A stretch of DNA of 64,000 nucleotides, from contig CAZLTB010000002.1 in assembly GCA_964562505.1 (NCBI GenBank), positions 1,200-65,199 of the forward strand, written 5' to 3'. The notes under the pieces were generated by a model that made no database searches, was not told the origin of the DNA, and was given only the letters and a program-made list of their open reading frames with translations. This DNA comes from an uncultured Candidatus Saccharibacteria bacterium (GTDB lineage: Bacteria; Patescibacteriota; Saccharimonadia; Saccharimonadales; CAZLTB01). The position numbers were made by a program, and so were the translations under genes. Shown here piece by piece: positions 2,619 to 54,154 of the stretch; position 1 is the stretch's first letter; each line of letters opens with the position of its first letter.

Positions 2619-4427
2619 TTAAGCGCTGTCCGCTGTTGCAACCCTATTGACTTCAGCCAGGGTCGTGCGCCCCGCTAAGGCCTTCAAATAACCGTCCTCA
2701 CGCATAGTAATCATGCCCTGTTTTTGGGCCGCGTTCTGGATTTCGGTACTGGTTGAATGTTTGATGATTAGCTCCTGTATCGGTTCGGTGATTTCAAATA
2801 CCTCGTACAGGCCTAGACGGCCTTTATAGCCCCCAGGCGTATCAGCACTGTCTGTGCCTTTATACAAAGTATAAGCATTTTGGTCTCTTAGAGGCAAGTT
2901 TTCATAGCCTAAATCAGTTAACGCAGCTTTGACCTGTTCTGGTTTTTCAGGCAGTAGGTGTGAAAGTGTAGTTTTAACGGACTCTGTTTCCGCTGCGTCG
3001 GATTGATAAGATTGTTTGCTTTCTTCACTGATACGTCTGACTAGACGTTGCCCGATTACAGTATGCACGGTACTGGCAATCAAAAATGGCTCAATACCCA
3101 TATCAAGAAGTCGGGGCAAAATGCCAGCTGCCGAGTTGGTGTGCAGGGTACTGAATACTAAATGGCCGGTTAAGGCTGCTTGTATTGCAAGCATTGCAGT
3201 CTCAGAATCGCGAATCTCACCCACTAAAACTACGTCGGGGTCCTGTCTTAAAATTGATCTTAGGCCTGTTGCAAAAGTAAGGCCTACATCAGGATTAACT
3301 TGGATCTGGTTTACGCCATCTATTTTATATTCAACCGGATCCTCAAGAGTAACTATATTTATGGCATCGTTTTTTATTTCCTGAATCATTGCATACATGG
3401 AAGTAGACTTACCGGATCCAGTTGGGCCGGAGGTTAAAATCATGCCATTAGACCGTGTAAGTCCAGTACGAATTGTGCGAAGTGCTCTACCTGTATAGCC
3501 CATATCTTCCAATTTGAGGCTAGTACCAGTCTTGTCCAGAAGCCGTATAACCACCTGTTCACCCCATACTACGGGTGAGATAGCAATACGCAGGTCTATA
3601 TCTTTGTCATTGGCGCGAACAGTAAACTGACCGTCTTGAGGTACACGATGTTCATCTATTTTAAGATTGGATAAAATTTTTATGCGGGAAACCAGTGCTG
3701 GTTCGGTGCTCTTTGGAAGTTTCATGATTTCACGCAAAACTCCATCTATACGACAGCGAATCTTTAGTTCCTTCTCAAGTGGCTCAATATGGATATCACT
3801 GGCCCTGTTTTTAGCGGCAAAGTCTAAAATTGACGACAGTGCTTTACTAATCGGCGAATCTTGAACAATGGTCTTTATATTTTTTTCTCTGTCATTAGGC
3901 TTTTTGGCTTGCTGCTCAGCCTCAGCTTGTTCTTCCTGGATTTTTTGTGCATCTTCGAGATCCCCGACAATGTTTTGATCAAGCTGAATTCCATACTGCT
4001 TCAACACATTGCGTATGCCCTCTTCACTGGCAGAGTAGACCTTGAGGGGTCGGCTAATTTTGTTAGACAAAAAGTCAACTGCCTGTACATTGTCAGCATC
4101 AAGCATTGCCACCGCTAAGCGATTATGCATTTCGCCTAATGGCACTGTCATGTAACGCTCGGCAATTTCTTTAGGTAATAACTTAAGTATGTCTGGGCTA
4201 ACTTTTGCAGCCGTCAAGTTAACATATGGAATTTTGGTAACGTACGCGACGGTTTTTGTCAGATCTTCATTTGTGATAATGCCATCATGGACTAATAGGC
4301 TTAGGAACGGTTCGCTGTTGTGCTCAGCCTTTTGTTTTAGGCCTTTTAGTTTATTGGACTCAATCAAACCGTCCTTGACAAGCTTATCCTCTACTTGCCT
4401 TTGAGCTGAAGCTGATAGAACGCTCAT
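2619..4427 (-). CDS. pilB: Type IV pilus assembly ATPase PilB (GspE family)
   Basis: 602 aa. N-terminal MshEN/GspE-N-like domain, Walker A GPTGSGKSTS, VVLVGEIRD and LTGHLVFSTLHTN. The usual C-terminal tetracysteine motif is absent (see findings). Confidence 0.92.
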   Translation of the reverse strand: MSVLSASAQRQVEDKLVKDGLIESNKLKGLKQKAEHNSEPFLSLLVHDGIITNEDLTKTVAYVTKIPYVNLTAAKVSPDILKLLPKEIAERYMTVPLGEMHNRLAVAMLDADNVQAVDFLSNKISRPLKVYSASEEGIRNVLKQYGIQLDQNIVGDLEDAQKIQEEQAEAEQQAKKPNDREKNIKTIVQDSPISKALSSILDFAAKNRASDIHIEPLEKELKIRCRIDGVLREIMKLPKSTEPALVSRIKILSNLKIDEHRVPQDGQFTVRANDKDIDLRIAISPVVWGEQVVIRLLDKTGTSLKLEDMGYTGRALRTIRTGLTRSNGMILTSGPTGSGKSTSMYAMIQEIKNDAINIVTLEDPVEYKIDGVNQIQVNPDVGLTFATGLRSILRQDPDVVLVGEIRDSETAMLAIQAALTGHLVFSTLHTNSAAGILPRLLDMGIEPFLIASTVHTVIGQRLVRRISEESKQSYQSDAAETESVKTTLSHLLPEKPEQVKAALTDLGYENLPLRDQNAYTLYKGTDSADTPGGYKGRLGLYEVFEITEPIQELIIKHSTSTEIQNAAQKQGMITMREDGYLKALAGRTTLAEVNRVATADSA

Positions 4428-49856: not shown

Positions 49857-50345
49857 TTATTGTACTCCTTGGTATTTCAAGCTCAGGTAGTGATCTCTCT
49901 GTTCTTTTGATAAATGTTCTATGGAGTAACGCAGAGTAGTTCTTGGCATAGTAGATGCGTGTTGGTCCAGAAAATTGAGCAGTATTATTTGATCGACCCT
50001 TTTACCTATCTCGCGGAGCATCCAGCCAACTGCCTTTTGAATTAAATCTTGTTTGTCATTTAGAAGGATTCCTATAACCATTAATGCTTCGTCAGGCTTA
50101 CCCCGTTTTATATAGTGAAAGGTAGCTAGCATAGCAATTCGTCGTTCCCACAGTAACCGCGAATTAGCTAGTTTAGTTAAGACTTGCGTTTTACTAGGCT
50201 TGTCTTCGAGCCAAGGACCAATAATAAATTCCGCACTGCTATCCACTAAATCCCAGTTATTAATGAACTGCGTATTATTTAGATAAATTTTGTAGACCTG
50301 TTCTTTAGTGTGCTGATCGCCTTTTTGATACTTTAGAACCAACAT
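49857..50345 (-). CDS. DNA alkylation repair protein (AlkD-like HEAT repeat); the homologous reading frame continues upstream to 50591
   Basis: The C-terminal motif QKAVGWMLREIGK is typical of the family. The coordinates give the first-ATG ORF. A further 82 in-frame codons upstream, up to the argS stop, encode the conserved family N-terminus (see findings). Confidence 0.7.
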   Translation of the reverse strand: MLVLKYQKGDQHTKEQVYKIYLNNTQFINNWDLVDSSAEFIIGPWLEDKPSKTQVLTKLANSRLLWERRIAMLATFHYIKRGKPDEALMVIGILLNDKQDLIQKAVGWMLREIGKRVDQIILLNFLDQHASTMPRTTLRYSIEHLSKEQRDHYLSLKYQGVQ

Positions 50346-50591
50346 AAATATGGCAGTTAATCGTTCCTCGTGCCACTTACTGCGTAAAAGCTTGTGTATC
50401 TCATCTAAACTTAAACGGTCGTAGTATTTTTTAGAAATAACGCGCTGTTTAGGTACGCTAACCCCTAAAAACTTGTCACCTTCGGCATATTCTCCGGGGC
50501 CAGATTTAAAAAATCGTGGGTAAAAAGCAGCTTTTTCAGGGTCAGCAGCAACACTTAATTCATTTTTTAATTGCTTGGTAGAACTCAGGAG

Positions 50592-52250
50592 CTACATCCT
50601 TTCCGGGGCTGATATATTGAGTAGATTTAAGCCTCTTTTGAGCGTATTAGCATATTCTTTAATTAATTGGAGGCGAATATTTTGTCTTGGATCATCTATC
50701 ACACGATTATGCTCATAGAACCGATTAAAAATCTGAGCTAGCTCATATAAATACGTAGTAATGTTACTGGGTAAAAGTTCGTTCACTGCACTGTCCACCA
50801 CTTCACCAAATTCACCGATTTTGCGCAGCAGACTTCGTTCATCTGGCCCGAGTCCTTCCTGATTTACCGAAGAAGATTCCTTGACCTTACTCAAAATGCT
50901 GCAGGCTCTGGCATGGGCATATTGTAAATATGGCCCAGAATTACCCAGGATATTTACTGATTCAGCTGGATCATAAATGATATTGCCGCCTATTCGCTGC
51001 TTCAAAAATGCGTATTTTACGGCGGCCAGTACAGTTTTTTCATCTTGATTACTAGTCACTTTTTTATTAGCCTTGGCTGCAGCGTCAAGTACATCAACAG
51101 CTTTTAGAATGTTACCTTTACGGCTACTCATTTTTTCGCCGCCAGCGAGTTTCACTATTCCATGTGTCAAATGAGTAGTTCGTTTAGCTAACTCGGGCTT
51201 AAATTGTTCAATACTTTTAAGAACAACTCTCATGTATTCCACGATGTCATTACCAGTAATAACAATCGACTGGTCAAAATGATAGTCGTTCCACTTCTTC
51301 ATAATCAGTCCGACATCCTTGGCCTCGTAAGTTGGTAGGCCTTCGGAGTTAATAAATACTCTGGTATGCAACCCGTATGGTTCACCTTTAAAAACTATGG
51401 CCCTATCACTTTCCTGATAAACATCTGGTACGTGTTCTTTAACGGTTGCCAAACCGACAGGTGCTGTTTCACTTTCTGGGTAATATTTTTCGAACTTACT
51501 ACCAAGTTGCCTATAGAACTCGTCAAAGTAGTCATAGCTCCATTGCCTGGTGGTCCAATAAATTTGCGCAAGCGGTGAGTCGTGATCATTATCATCATGG
51601 AGTTGATATACTCGTTTGTTCAATGCTGTGATTTCAGTTTTAGCAGATTCACTAGTTTCATATGCTTTATTACCTTCTACGTAACGTTCGCTTAGCCAAT
51701 CAGCACGCTCATTTTCAGAGATTTTGGTCAATTTTTCTGGATTTTCGCCTTTTAAAAACTGAATAATTGCCCACATATTTTTTGCCACGTGCATGCCCAC
51801 GTCACCGCCGAAATTCACTCTATGGACCTTGGCGCCGGCCGCTTCAAACAAATTAGCAATGGCATCACCTACTACACTGGTATAAAGATGTCCGGCATGC
51901 AGAACTTTAAACGGGTTCGGGTCAGAATATTCTGCAACTACAGTCTTACCTTCAAGTCCCTGACTGGGTTCAGACTTTGCTAGCTCCCACAGAGCATTGT
52001 CACTTAATTGAAAGTTCAAAAACCCCGGTTTTGCTACTTCTGAATTTATTATGTACTTAGATGCTATTTTTGCCTTAATCGCTTCGGCTATCTCATTCGG
52101 ATCTTTGTTCAATTGCCTTGCTAACTGCAGAGAAACGTTAGTTGCTAAGTCACCAAATTGTTCATCCGGCCGGGTCAGCTCAACCTCAATATCTATATTG
52201 AACAAATCCTTAACTACATTGGCAATATTGGACTTGATTTCCTGTCTCAT
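50592..52250 (-). CDS. argS: Arginine--tRNA ligase
   Basis: 552 aa with a HIGH-type motif (LHAGHLYTSVVGD), MSSRKG, a DALR anticodon-binding domain and the family-typical C-terminal Met. Confidence 0.96.
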   Translation of the reverse strand: MRQEIKSNIANVVKDLFNIDIEVELTRPDEQFGDLATNVSLQLARQLNKDPNEIAEAIKAKIASKYIINSEVAKPGFLNFQLSDNALWELAKSEPSQGLEGKTVVAEYSDPNPFKVLHAGHLYTSVVGDAIANLFEAAGAKVHRVNFGGDVGMHVAKNMWAIIQFLKGENPEKLTKISENERADWLSERYVEGNKAYETSESAKTEITALNKRVYQLHDDNDHDSPLAQIYWTTRQWSYDYFDEFYRQLGSKFEKYYPESETAPVGLATVKEHVPDVYQESDRAIVFKGEPYGLHTRVFINSEGLPTYEAKDVGLIMKKWNDYHFDQSIVITGNDIVEYMRVVLKSIEQFKPELAKRTTHLTHGIVKLAGGEKMSSRKGNILKAVDVLDAAAKANKKVTSNQDEKTVLAAVKYAFLKQRIGGNIIYDPAESVNILGNSGPYLQYAHARACSILSKVKESSSVNQEGLGPDERSLLRKIGEFGEVVDSAVNELLPSNITTYLYELAQIFNRFYEHNRVIDDPRQNIRLQLIKEYANTLKRGLNLLNISAPERM

Positions 52251-52268
52251 TGATTTAACTATAACAGA

Positions 52269-52961
52269 TCAGTGCTTGTCGTTATTAAGTGCTACAATAA
52301 GCTGCCAAATAACCACGTACATACCTCCAACTAAAAGAAAGAATATAGCAGTAGTAACAAACGTCTGTAAGTGGACAATTGGGTAAATCAAACGATCAGA
52401 AACATCAAATAAAAGTCCTGCTGGATTTACTATCACATCCCAGGTATTCCATCTTAAGTTTCTACCCAAATAAATGGCAAAACTGCATAAAAGTATAACC
52501 ACAGCTATCAGAGCATGAGCCCGAAATCGCTCCAGGCGTTTGAGCAGTTCACGATGGACTATATATATGCTTACAAAACCGCTGATAAGACCGTTAAATA
52601 TAATCGAGAAGAACAATGCAGCGTCATAAAGTAGATTCACTTCTCCGGTATTTCGCAGATGGACAAGATCACTAATCAGATAGAAACTGTTCGGCAAAAA
52701 TATTAGCCAAAGCGCTGTCAGTAGAATATTTTCGGCACTGAGCCAAGGGGTTGTTGACAATCTTCGCATTACCCACCAAGCCAGACCTATGGGTATCCAT
52801 GCCAATGCCAGGTTCCAGAATAGAAACCAATATCTCAGGGTATGGCTGTCCGCTACACGAAAAGCATATAGTAATAAACTTAGACTATTAGCAACAATTA
52901 AGGCGTAAACAACCCGTTGGAAGCTATTTGCTCCGGCCCCCACAGCCTTTTCCCTGCTCAT
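52269..52961 (-). CDS. DUF1361-family integral membrane protein
   Basis: Polytopic membrane protein containing the LWLIFLPNSFYLISDLVHL motif. The ATG at 52961 is preferred over the longer track ORF. Confidence 0.6.
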   Translation of the reverse strand: MSREKAVGAGANSFQRVVYALIVANSLSLLLYAFRVADSHTLRYWFLFWNLALAWIPIGLAWWVMRRLSTTPWLSAENILLTALWLIFLPNSFYLISDLVHLRNTGEVNLLYDAALFFSIIFNGLISGFVSIYIVHRELLKRLERFRAHALIAVVILLCSFAIYLGRNLRWNTWDVIVNPAGLLFDVSDRLIYPIVHLQTFVTTAIFFLLVGGMYVVIWQLIVALNNDKH

Positions 52962-52996
52962 TATCTGTTTATTATAACAGTTGTATACTGTTAGCA

Positions 52997-54154
52997 ATGC
53001 TTAGGCGCACTGTCAAAAAAGCAATCAAACACTTAAGGGCCAACAACTATATACCTCTTAACCGTATTGAACTGGCTCGTAGTAAAACTCTGAATAACAT
53101 AGACCATATACGGTCTCAAAATAAGAAACTGGGCATAATTCCAGTACTTAAAGCCAATGCCTATGGTCATGGTCTTTCACAAATGGCTGAGATATTGAAT
53201 AAAGCAGAGTGTTCGTTTGTCGCGATTGATGGTTATTTTGAAGCAGCCAGCATTCGTGATATCACTAAACATCACATCTTAGTAATGGGTTATATTCGTC
53301 CGGAAAACGTTCGTTTGCTTGATACTAAGAGATGTTCATTTGTAATACAGGATAAAGAAGGGCTCGAAGCATTTGCACGTCTGGGAAAACCAGTAAAGGT
53401 TCATCTTGAACTTAACACTGGAATGAATCGGATGGGGCTACAGCCCGAAGAACTAGACGATTACTTAAATACGCTCAAACAATTCCCTGCACTCAAACTT
53501 GAAGGGGTTATGTCGCATCTGGCAGATGCCGATAATGAGATCGATAACAGCTATTCGCTGGAACAAACTAAACTGTTTGATGATTTGGTCAAAAAGATAT
53601 TGGGCAAGGGATTTAAACCCAGTTTTATTCATTTAGCTCAAACCGCGGGTAGTACTAAGACGAAAAGTCGCTTTGCAAACGCTATTCGTTTGGGAATTGG
53701 CTTATATGGACTTAATCCGTTGAATGCAAATGACCATGCTCACTCAAAGCTAGCAGCTTTGCAACCGATTTTGGAAATGAAAAGTACAGTTATTAAAGTT
53801 ATAGAACTTAAAAAGGGTGATCGAGTTAGCTATAACGGTATTTTTACGGCACCAAAGACCATGAAAATTGGTGTATTACCACTCGGTTATTATGAAGGTA
53901 TTCCTAGGGTCTTGAGTAACTCAGGCACGGTCTTATATAGAGATAAGCAATTGCCGATCGTAGGCCGAGTTTGCATGAATCATACAATGATTGATATAGA
54001 CGATGCGGATATAAAAGTCGGGTCTGAGGTTACAATAATTTCAAGTGATCCAGATCAGCCAAATGCTGTTAATAATATATGTGCATCTCATAACCTATTT
54101 AACTATAGCTTTGTAACCGGGCTTGCAAGTACAACCAGACGAATAATTGTTTAG
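52997..54154 (+). CDS. alr: Alanine racemase
   Basis: PLP-lysine motif PVLKANAYGHG and C-terminal motif GRVCMNHTMID. The ATG at 52997 is preferred because the upstream 23 codons overlap the divergent gene. Confidence 0.9.
   Translation: MLRRTVKKAIKHLRANNYIPLNRIELARSKTLNNIDHIRSQNKKLGIIPVLKANAYGHGLSQMAEILNKAECSFVAIDGYFEAASIRDITKHHILVMGYIRPENVRLLDTKRCSFVIQDKEGLEAFARLGKPVKVHLELNTGMNRMGLQPEELDDYLNTLKQFPALKLEGVMSHLADADNEIDNSYSLEQTKLFDDLVKKILGKGFKPSFIHLAQTAGSTKTKSRFANAIRLGIGLYGLNPLNANDHAHSKLAALQPILEMKSTVIKVIELKKGDRVSYNGIFTAPKTMKIGVLPLGYYEGIPRVLSNSGTVLYRDKQLPIVGRVCMNHTMIDIDDADIKVGSEVTIISSDPDQPNAVNNICASHNLFNYSFVTGLASTTRRIIV

Follow-up and report, generated by a model that had tools for sequence, protein, structure and literature searches.

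An intact alkD-like gene with CTG at the usual start position of a conserved argS-alkD junction in an uncultured Saccharibacteria genome

The argS-alkD locus described here is carried by the genome of an uncultured Saccharibacteria bacterium, and both genes lie on the minus strand. Coordinates refer to the window, which is the whole stretch of 64,000 nt that was analysed. From 5' to 3' along the minus strand, the locus comprises the following features.

52269-52997, minus strand: DUF1361 membrane-protein gene, 5' of argS (Pfam PF07099, E = 3.4e-37)
50592-52250, minus strand: argS, arginyl-tRNA synthetase, 552 aa plus TAG (Pfam Arg_tRNA_synt_N, tRNA-synt_1d and DALR_1)
50597-50604, minus strand: Shine-Dalgarno (SD)-like GGAAAGGA, within the final argS codons GAA AGG ATG
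50592-50594, minus strand: argS stop codon TAG, in frame with alkD
50346-50591, minus strand: 82 conserved N-terminal codons without ATG, GTG or TTG, absent from the public 162-aa call
50586-50588, minus strand: CTG, proposed near-cognate start of alkD, +3 nt from the argS stop
49857-50588, minus strand: full-length AlkD-like (PF08713) CDS, 243 codons from CTG plus TAA
50343-50345, minus strand: internal ATG (Met83), the start in the automatic annotation (P0006, 162 aa)
49834-48608, minus strand: glutamate dehydrogenase gene (gdh; Pfam ELFV_dehydrog), 3' of alkD and co-directional
48607-48200, minus strand: mscL (NCBIfam MscL), co-directional

The genes DUF1361-argS-alkD-gdh-mscL form one operon, in which alkD is found directly 3' of argS. 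The gdh start is 22 nt past the alkD stop, the mscL start comes directly after the gdh stop, and no terminator-like site was found between argS and alkD. Promoter matches were weak only (9/12, about 400 nt upstream, inside argS), with none convincing between the two genes. The DUF1361 gene is also a neighbour in two related loci (L083 and L086).

The argS product ends in ...SAPERM followed by TAG, the same PERM-TAG ending as in its orthologs, and the DALR_1 match reaches the last position of the profile (1-117 of 117), so the TAG is the natural end of argS. Beginning with the next codon (from 50591), the same frame continues for 244 codons without a stop, to the TAA at 49859-49857. Reading of the minus strand confirmed the original prediction that argS and alkD share a frame with one TAG between them. 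It had also been claimed that the N-terminal 82 codons contain no canonical start, and the ORF listing agrees: the alkD frame has no ATG, GTG or TTG upstream of the ATG at 50345 (codon 83). Among the 66 long open frames of the window, the start-less lead is 82 codons in the alkD frame and at most 23 in all others; given the codon usage of the window, the probability of 82 sense codons without ATG, GTG or TTG is about 0.017. Eight codons separate the TAG from the Pfam match (CTC CTG AGT TCT ACC AAG CAA TTA). CTG is the only one of them whose sole mismatch to AUG is at the first position, and no ATH codon is present among the eight. The CTG at 50588-50586 and the SD-like GGAAAGGA at 50604-50597, with 8 nt between them, were found as predicted.

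Several other explanations of the start-less frame were considered and rejected. For a start in another frame combined with a frameshift, the other two frames proved to be without a start around the junction and one of them runs into TGA after five codons; the junction RNA is unstructured, with no stable structure 3' of the TAG (z = +1.39) and none that would suggest frameshifting. Reassignment of TAG was rejected since the codon terminates 24 of the 66 long frames in the window, and is therefore an ordinary stop here, the alkD frame alone being anomalous. A nearby suppressor tRNA was dismissed, as the window contains no tRNA genes of any kind.

The 244-aa translation matches PF08713 (DNA_alkylation) over profile positions 2-213 of 213 (residues 9-227, E = 4.5e-61) with a score of 206.7 bits (cut-off 21). 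The 162-aa ORF covers profile positions 75-213 only and scores 145.8 bits, so that the N-terminal codons add 61 bits. Alignment with Bacillus cereus AlkD (phmmer) extends over residues 8-227 (E = 2e-9). An AlphaFold model of the window protein (pLDDT 93.4, pTM 0.88) shows the complete AlkD fold, an all-helical solenoid of HEAT-like repeats with 15 helices, and Foldseek returned TM-scores of 0.75-0.80 to B. cereus AlkD structures over ~240 columns. These results bear out both the AlkD/PF08713 assignment and the view that the conserved N-terminus belongs to the protein. In the model, the N-terminal 82-codon segment comprises helices 4-15, 18-27, 46-56 and 62-69 and the first part of helix 74-90, and Met83 is placed inside the last of these. 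Homologs are 236-245 aa long, and in the alignment their initial Met falls opposite the two Leu codons that open the window frame. In the phmmer alignment, NNWDLVD of the window protein is opposite WWDSVD of AlkD and GWMLRE is opposite GWVLRE, so that the WD..D and GW motifs are both retained. Residues W113, D117 and W190 are invariant across 27 homologs, and are presumably the equivalents of the catalytic Trp-Asp-Trp cleft residues of AlkD (W109, D113 and W187). Judged by sequence comparison and modelling, the gene is a complete, structurally intact gene predicted to function in DNA-alkylation repair of the AlkD type (HEAT-like repeats). While the window protein shares PF08713 and the fold with B. 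cereus AlkD, an alkylpurine DNA glycosylase (PDB 3BVS, 3JX7, 5CL3), the two are only ~20% identical and, unlike B. cereus AlkD, it is a member of the RFFK.GPGEYAEGD subgroup, which CPR bacteria commonly have; its glycosylase activity is putative.

At columns with 95% or higher conservation in a set of 115 homologs, the N-terminal 82 codons show no deviations (0/22). The rest of the protein deviates at one of 50 highly conserved columns. Taken together, these counts are typical of functional homologs (mean 0.97). Ten deviations in an alignment of 27 sequences had hinted at relaxed constraint, but the hint was gone with 115 homologs. The sequence is also reproduced in a separate Logan assembly of SRR9179562 (L081, 2,020 bp), which is 100% identical, including at the junction, and an assembler artefact is therefore unlikely.

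Searches of a protein database of 5.8 billion sequences, GTDB genomes and JGI metagenomes returned no relatives above 70% amino acid identity besides the sequence itself. The closest relatives, at or below this level, carry ATG. Since none is closer than 70%, the CTG may be either recent or long maintained, and shortly after the loss of a start the ORF would be just as intact. Between argS and alkD, the nearest relatives (L082, L085 and L086) carry a DUF1801 gene, and the argS-DUF1801 junction of L086 (TAG ttc ATG) resembles that of the window (TAG ctc CTG). Because of this likeness, a deletion of the DUF1801 gene that also removed the ATG was weighed, but it is not favoured, as alkD directly behind argS is an arrangement that occurs widely in both the ArgRS and the AlkD tree, and the junction of the window agrees with these direct ones, including Ser at the second codon.

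Start codons were compared across 32 distinct direct argS-alkD junctions of Saccharibacteria/CPR, consisting of the window and 31 others. At the 31 other junctions, the distance between argS stop and alkD start is -4 to +6 nt and the start codon is ATG (22), GTG (8) or TTG (1), and the spacers of these relatives occur in all three phases. The window CTG, at +3, fills the same slot, and the codon after it specifies Ser, in keeping with the MS... beginning of many orthologs. CTG is seen at only one of the 32 junctions, so there is no sign of a lineage-wide relaxed start-codon choice. A broader set of ~160 alkD loci gave a similar picture, with a canonical start located 17-54 codons upstream of the conserved F27 in all except the window (identical to L081), L027 and contig-end cases; the window is one of only two loci with a non-canonical start. 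No full-length homolog starts at the equivalent of Met83. Two short homologs (P0067 and P0083), examined as further non-canonical starts, were rejected because they are under-called genes with TTG starts. The comparison of ortholog starts and spacing that was proposed with the original prediction found the upstream homologous segment to be present in the orthologs.

The duplex of GGAAAGGA with the anti-SD sequence, 8 nt upstream of the CTG, has a calculated energy of -9.2 kcal/mol, compared with a median of -3.6 kcal/mol for window genes and a random 5th percentile of -6.7. The ATG at 50345 has no SD (+0.3 kcal/mol). Among the 32 junctions, that of the window is tied for the second-strongest SD, the averages being -3.9 for ATG and -5.7 for GTG junctions. 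At the end of argS it is AGG, the rarest Arg codon here (8.2%), that creates the SD; the conserved ArgRS C-terminus (P-E-R-M) largely dictates the SD-like run, which is present in relatives with ATG too. Weak start codons are known to pair with strong SDs, and a CTG accompanied by a strong SD fits this pattern (PMC5622118).

As CTG takes the place of the ATG, GTG or TTG seen in all 31 related genes, the alkD gene is probably either a rare weak-start gene or a very recent case of start loss. The reading preferred here, with a probability of roughly 0.55, is that the CTG in the start slot belongs to an alkD gene coupled to argS, and that weak CUG initiation still makes protein. In experiments, termination-reinitiation is efficient at distances of about -8 to +10 nt (PMC10666635), and alkD of Saccharibacteria, normally joined tightly to argS, would most likely be translated by ribosomes coming straight from termination on argS, with the SD-like purine run in the last argS codons helping the restart. 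A single first-position substitution would have placed CTG in the slot where relatives hold ATG, GTG or TTG, and the initiator tRNA would still start at this CUG, 3 nt past the UAG and 8 nt past GGAAAGGA. The outcome would be a 243-aa protein at a reduced level, plausibly enough for a repair glycosylase. Of the four explanations offered originally, CTG initiation coupled to termination at argS is the best supported, its slot at +3 falling within the range of -4 to +6; that CUG is actually used, and that alkD is still under selection, is what we infer. Speaking against a CUG start, this codon is a very poor one in E. coli, where initiation from it is ~1-2% (0.02-3%) of that from AUG (bioRxiv 10.1101/063800), and switches from AUG to CUG between close genomes are extremely rare (2/61,358; PMC5622118). 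It is rather unlikely that CUG is a selected, functional restart codon that keeps expression deliberately low and coupled to argS; start discrimination would then be relaxed because the ribosomes have just terminated 3 nt upstream and a strong SD is in place.

The locus may instead hold an incipient pseudogene, in which a recent mutation of ATG, GTG or TTG to CTG effectively silences alkD and the ORF is too young to have decayed. This is possible but doubtful. The CTG is the sole non-canonical start among the 32 junctions, with two such cases in ~160 alkD loci, CUG has at most ~3% of AUG efficiency in E. coli, and among relatives alkD can be dispensed with or varies in its position, being frameshifted in L042 and separated from argS by other genes in L082, L085, L086 and L001. 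The window gene, however, has no frameshift or stop, its conserved columns are all kept in the N-terminal part and all but one of 50 in the C-terminal part, and a strong SD stands at the right spacing with the coupling geometry preserved. Since a CUG should in general allow some translation, alkD is unlikely to be fully silent. A sequencing or consensus error, or a minor variant, behind which the true codon at 50588-50586 is ATG (or GTG/TTG), is very improbable. The source is a metagenome-assembled genome, one base decides the matter and both assemblies may derive from the same reads, but two different assemblers gave 100% identity over 2,020 bp, substitution errors seldom survive consensus, and no other gene in the window is broken or start-less.

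The original prediction also raised low-level readthrough of the TAG, giving an ArgRS-AlkD fusion as the source of AlkD, an idea that draws on the common frame and the single stop between the genes. It was not borne out, and its likelihood is slight in the extreme: as the spacers of relatives range from -4 to +6 nt and use all three phases, the shared frame is not conserved, the TAG is a normal stop, the window has neither a suppressor nor any other tRNA, and the RNA downstream of the TAG lacks stable structure. A tRNA-synthetase domain occurs in none of the best 120 AlkD homologs listed, the longest of which (380 aa) is a DUF1801-AlkD call. Scarcely credible, too, is a genuinely truncated protein of 162 aa starting at ATG 50345, as annotated. 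This ATG is the first canonical start and is the one chosen by automatic pipelines (P0006), but it has no SD and no full-length homolog starts at the equivalent position. It also falls in mid-helix, and because Met83 is inside helix 74-90 of the model, truncation would be predicted to cost the solenoid four helices and half of a fifth. The 82 upstream codons retain every highly conserved residue (22/22 conserved N-terminal columns) in addition to their contribution to the Pfam score, and the suggestion of a true truncation is not upheld.

Coupled initiation at CTG can be compared with known systems. Gene pairs coupled by termination-reinitiation in bacteria and archaea (Huber et al. 2019, 2023; PMC6728339, PMC10666635) are co-directional with stop and start within -8 to +10 nt, as are argS and alkD, whose junction is conserved in 32 lineages. 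In the window, by contrast, a CUG would serve as restart codon in place of AUG, GUG or UUG, the argS and alkD products are not subunits of one complex, and coupling is suggested by geometry. The rare bacterial starts CUG, AUU, AUC and AUA (Hecht et al., Belinky et al.) are four near-cognates with ~1-2% of AUG activity in E. coli; the CUG of the window differs from the documented examples in its uncultured CPR host and its stop-proximal restart position, and is a candidate start by sequence. In calicivirus termination-reinitiation, the restart also takes place a few nt from the stop, and initiator Met-tRNA still reads restart codons that are near-cognate (PMC5972666). That eukaryotic viral system needs a specific upstream tethering element, and the analogy extends only to relaxed start selection.

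The public 162-aa protein call is wrong, being too short; the real coding region has 243 codons, and its start triplet, CTG, is one that gene finders do not consider. Whether or not CUG is used, the case concerns one base, one gene and an already known phenomenon. The 32 argS-alkD junctions are a clean natural series in which SD strength climbs from ATG to GTG to CTG, and could serve to examine in what way weak starts are offset by termination-reinitiation and SD strength. Were CUG a selected restart codon, the junction would offer a natural case, in a bacterium, of termination-reinitiation making near-cognate initiation possible. Actual use of CUG would add one bacterial start to the few documented ones other than AUG, GUG and UUG; if it is not used, alkD would show gene loss in a reduced CPR genome at its very first step.

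The alkD frame is the argS frame: it opens at nt 50591, the codon right after the argS stop, and runs for 244 codons to a TAA (nt 49859-49857). The junction comprises:

52250..50592, minus strand: argS, 552 aa, C-terminus ...SAPERM followed by TAG
50604-50597, minus strand: SD-like GGAAAGGA, 8 nt upstream of the CTG
50594-50592, minus strand: TAG, the argS stop, in frame with alkD
50588-50586, minus strand: CTG, candidate alkD start, +3 nt from the argS stop
50345, minus strand: ATG, first canonical start in the alkD frame (ORF listing for ATG, GTG and TTG), giving a 162-aa ORF

The positions originally given for the CTG, TAG and GGAAAGGA were exact when rechecked on the sequence, and the ORF listing confirmed that no ATG, GTG or TTG occurs in frame before 50345. 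The DALR_1 Pfam match of ArgRS extends to the final profile position, so ...SAPERM is its natural C-terminus. A scan of the whole window for stop-to-stop frames spanning 80 codons or more gave 66 that do not overlap, and in 65 of these the first canonical start comes 0–23 codons after the upstream stop; alkD is the sole exception, with 82 codons (P ~0.017 for such a run at the codon usage of the window, where ATG, GTG and TTG together make up 4.85%). The public NCBI protein (P0006) is the 162-aa call. Gene packing is tight, many neighbours abutting or overlapping (gdh and mscL are 0 nt apart, and several pairs have short overlaps), and about half of the window genes have little or no SD.

Translated in full (244 aa), the frame aligns with PF08713 (DNA_alkylation) over profile positions 2–213 (E = 4.5e-61, 206.7 bits), and the 162-aa ORF covers only positions 75–213 (145.8 bits). 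The match from position 2 bears out the original assignment of the upstream segment to the N-terminus of the AlkD family. The window comes from an uncultured member of the Saccharibacteria (CPR/Patescibacteria), and the closest homologs (59–70% identity, 236–245 aa) are likewise from Saccharibacteria MAGs. Bacillus cereus AlkD aligns to residues 8–227 (E = 2e-9) and shares the WD..D and GW motifs (W113, D117 and W190 of the window protein). An AlphaFold2 model (input alignment with 27 homologs; pLDDT 93.4, pTM 0.88) superposes on AlkD crystal structures over ~240 columns with TM-scores of 0.75–0.80, and places helices at residues 4–15, 18–27, 46–56 and 62–69 of the first 82. Sequence, predicted fold and catalytic motifs all place the protein in the AlkD/PF08713 family.

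GTDB genomes and JGI metagenomes show argS directly 5' of alkD in many Saccharibacteria, and 32 distinct direct junctions, the window included, were compared. In the 31 others alkD starts −4 to +6 nt from the argS stop, with ATG in 22, GTG in 8 and TTG in 1.

Spacing of the alkD start from the argS stop in the 31 other junctions
−4 nt: 3 junctions
−1 nt: 11 junctions (TAATG type)
0 nt: 3 junctions
+1 nt: 2 junctions
+2 nt: 7 junctions
+3 nt: 2 junctions
+6 nt: 3 junctions

This comparison of ortholog starts and spacing, proposed with the original prediction, places the CTG in the shared start slot. It stands at +3 and is followed by AGT (Ser), a Met-Ser opening being common among orthologs, and the initiator Met of 26 aligned homologs falls on or beside the two Leu codons that open the window frame. 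Since it is placed and followed as in relatives, the CTG is, on sequence comparison, the positional homolog of their starts, and one substitution in its first base separates it from ATG, GTG or TTG. The annotation is to be corrected: the alkD coding region corresponds to 243 aa rather than 162 aa.

Across ~160 alkD-like loci a canonical start lies 17–54 codons upstream of the conserved F27, the exceptions being the window gene (also present as L081), contig-end cases and L027; orthologs starting at the equivalent of Met 50345, as considered in the original prediction, were not seen. In L027 (nt 3950-4075; MAG Patescibacteria H43-bin115_1), 44 open codons precede F27 without ATG, GTG or TTG, an in-frame ATT lies ~22 nt downstream of TGCTACAAT, which resembles a −10 box, and the next gene upstream runs divergently; this alkD may be ATT-initiated or a short-leader gene. 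L042 (nt 4000-4200) has alkD directly 3' of argS with a GTG at +6, and its frame changes near nt 4170, reflecting either a pseudogene with a frameshift or an error of assembly. P0067 and P0083, database proteins of 220 and 228 aa, are called too short, their conserved N-terminus running upstream to a TTG (L083:2440-2510, L001:3990-4010, L084:660-720) that overlaps the stop of the upstream gene in L083 and L001 (cTGTTGA) and sits just before a TAG in L084; weak starts thus recur at coupled junctions in the family.

The terminal argS codons GAA AGG ATG make up GGAAAGGA, AGG being the rarest Arg codon of the window (8.2%). Paired with a standard anti-SD at the spacing usual for a start at the CTG, this run is predicted to reach −9.2 kcal/mol, compared with a window-gene median of −3.6, a random-position 5th percentile of −6.7 and +0.3 kcal/mol at ATG 50345. 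Mean SD energies among the 32 junctions are −3.9 for ATG and −5.7 for GTG starts, and the window ties for second-strongest. Weaker start codons are reported to go with stronger SDs (PMC5622118); the window agrees in direction, as one data point whose purine run is partly set by the conserved ArgRS C-terminus. Junction RNA structure did not exceed that of shuffles (z = +1.39), and no terminator or convincing promoter was found between argS and alkD. The final AUG-UAG of argS (nt 50592-50597, minus strand), just 3' of the SD-like run, is a 'start-stop' that could compete for reinitiating ribosomes. Almost all related junctions have this AUG-stop ending; ArgRS of L021 (nt 3860-3871) ends in ...PEKI (ATA-TAA), the C-terminal Met being otherwise universal (31 junctions). 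The operon order DUF1361-argS-alkD-gdh-mscL is common to relatives. Upstream, the called TTG starts of the DUF1361 gene (52997, minus) and alanine racemase (52928, plus) overlap head-to-head by 70 nt (nt 52928-52997), with Pfam matches only from residues 61 and 56 onward; the true starts are probably internal ATGs, leaving a divergent promoter region.

In experiments, termination-reinitiation is efficient at stop-start distances of about −8 to +10 nt (PMC10666635; reviewed in PMC12548453). As the junction distances lie within this range, alkD would normally be translated by coupling to argS, an arrangement that fits in both geometry and conservation. In the window lineage a point mutation would have turned the restart codon into CUG, which in E. 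coli belongs to a set of four near-cognates with ~1–2% (0.02–3%) of the initiation seen at AUG (bioRxiv 10.1101/063800). A strong SD, together with a ribosome terminating 3 nt upstream, should allow some initiation; the only precedent found for relaxed start-codon discrimination during reinitiation is calicivirus termination-reinitiation (PMC5972666). AUG to CUG switches between close genomes have been recorded, though very rarely (2/61,358; PMC5622118). Coupling, point mutation and weak CUG initiation make the most economical reading, and we put CUG-initiated expression of a still-useful AlkD protein at a probability of about 0.55.

An incipient pseudogene, effectively silenced by very recent start loss, is a less likely account. 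Against it, at columns at least 95% conserved among 115 homologs the window deviates at 0/22 positions in residues 1–82 and 1/50 in the remainder, where the homologs themselves average 0.97 deviations, so that neither the N-terminal segment nor alkD as a whole shows decay. Both a maintained weak start and a very recent start loss would fit these data, since the searched collections, including GTDB and JGI, contained no sequence above 70% amino acid identity to the window AlkD apart from the gene itself. Consensus error, a readthrough fusion and a truncated protein together take the remaining weight. An error is countered by the Logan assembly of run SRR9179562 (L081, 2,020 bp), which matches the window at 100% identity, junction included. 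Against readthrough, TAG ends 24 of the 66 window frames (TAA 33; TGA, the rarest, 9) and is thus an ordinary stop, and the shared frame is incidental, since the argS/alkD frame relation differs from relative to relative; no tRNA genes were found in the window. A 162-aa protein would begin at Met83, within modelled helix 74–90, and so mid-helix and without about one-third of the solenoid.

The junction could also have arisen by deletion of an insert that took the ATG with it. In the three closest relatives (L082, L085 and L086; AlkD 67–70% identical) argS and alkD are separated by a DUF1801 gene (L082:2583-3032, L085:2083-2532, L086:2072-2500). In L082 and L085 this gene shares 32 nt with the beginning of alkD; L082 has an extra 102-aa ORF between argS and alkD, and the 380-aa database protein P0013 is annotated as a fusion of DUF1801 and AlkD. 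However, direct junctions are scattered throughout the ArgRS and AlkD trees and the window junction resembles them, and for these reasons we favour retention of the ancestral junction followed by point substitution. Identities to the window are 67% for AlkD and 45–47% for ArgRS in L085/L086, and 70% and 68% in L082; such discordance points to two lineages of ArgRS within Saccharibacteria, or else to gene transfer of one of the pair.

CUG starts have been described before, as have start-loss mutations, and the window alkD is a further instance, not a new kind. Its main value lies in the annotation fix and in a natural series of junctions for studying how start codon, SD and coupling compensate for one another.
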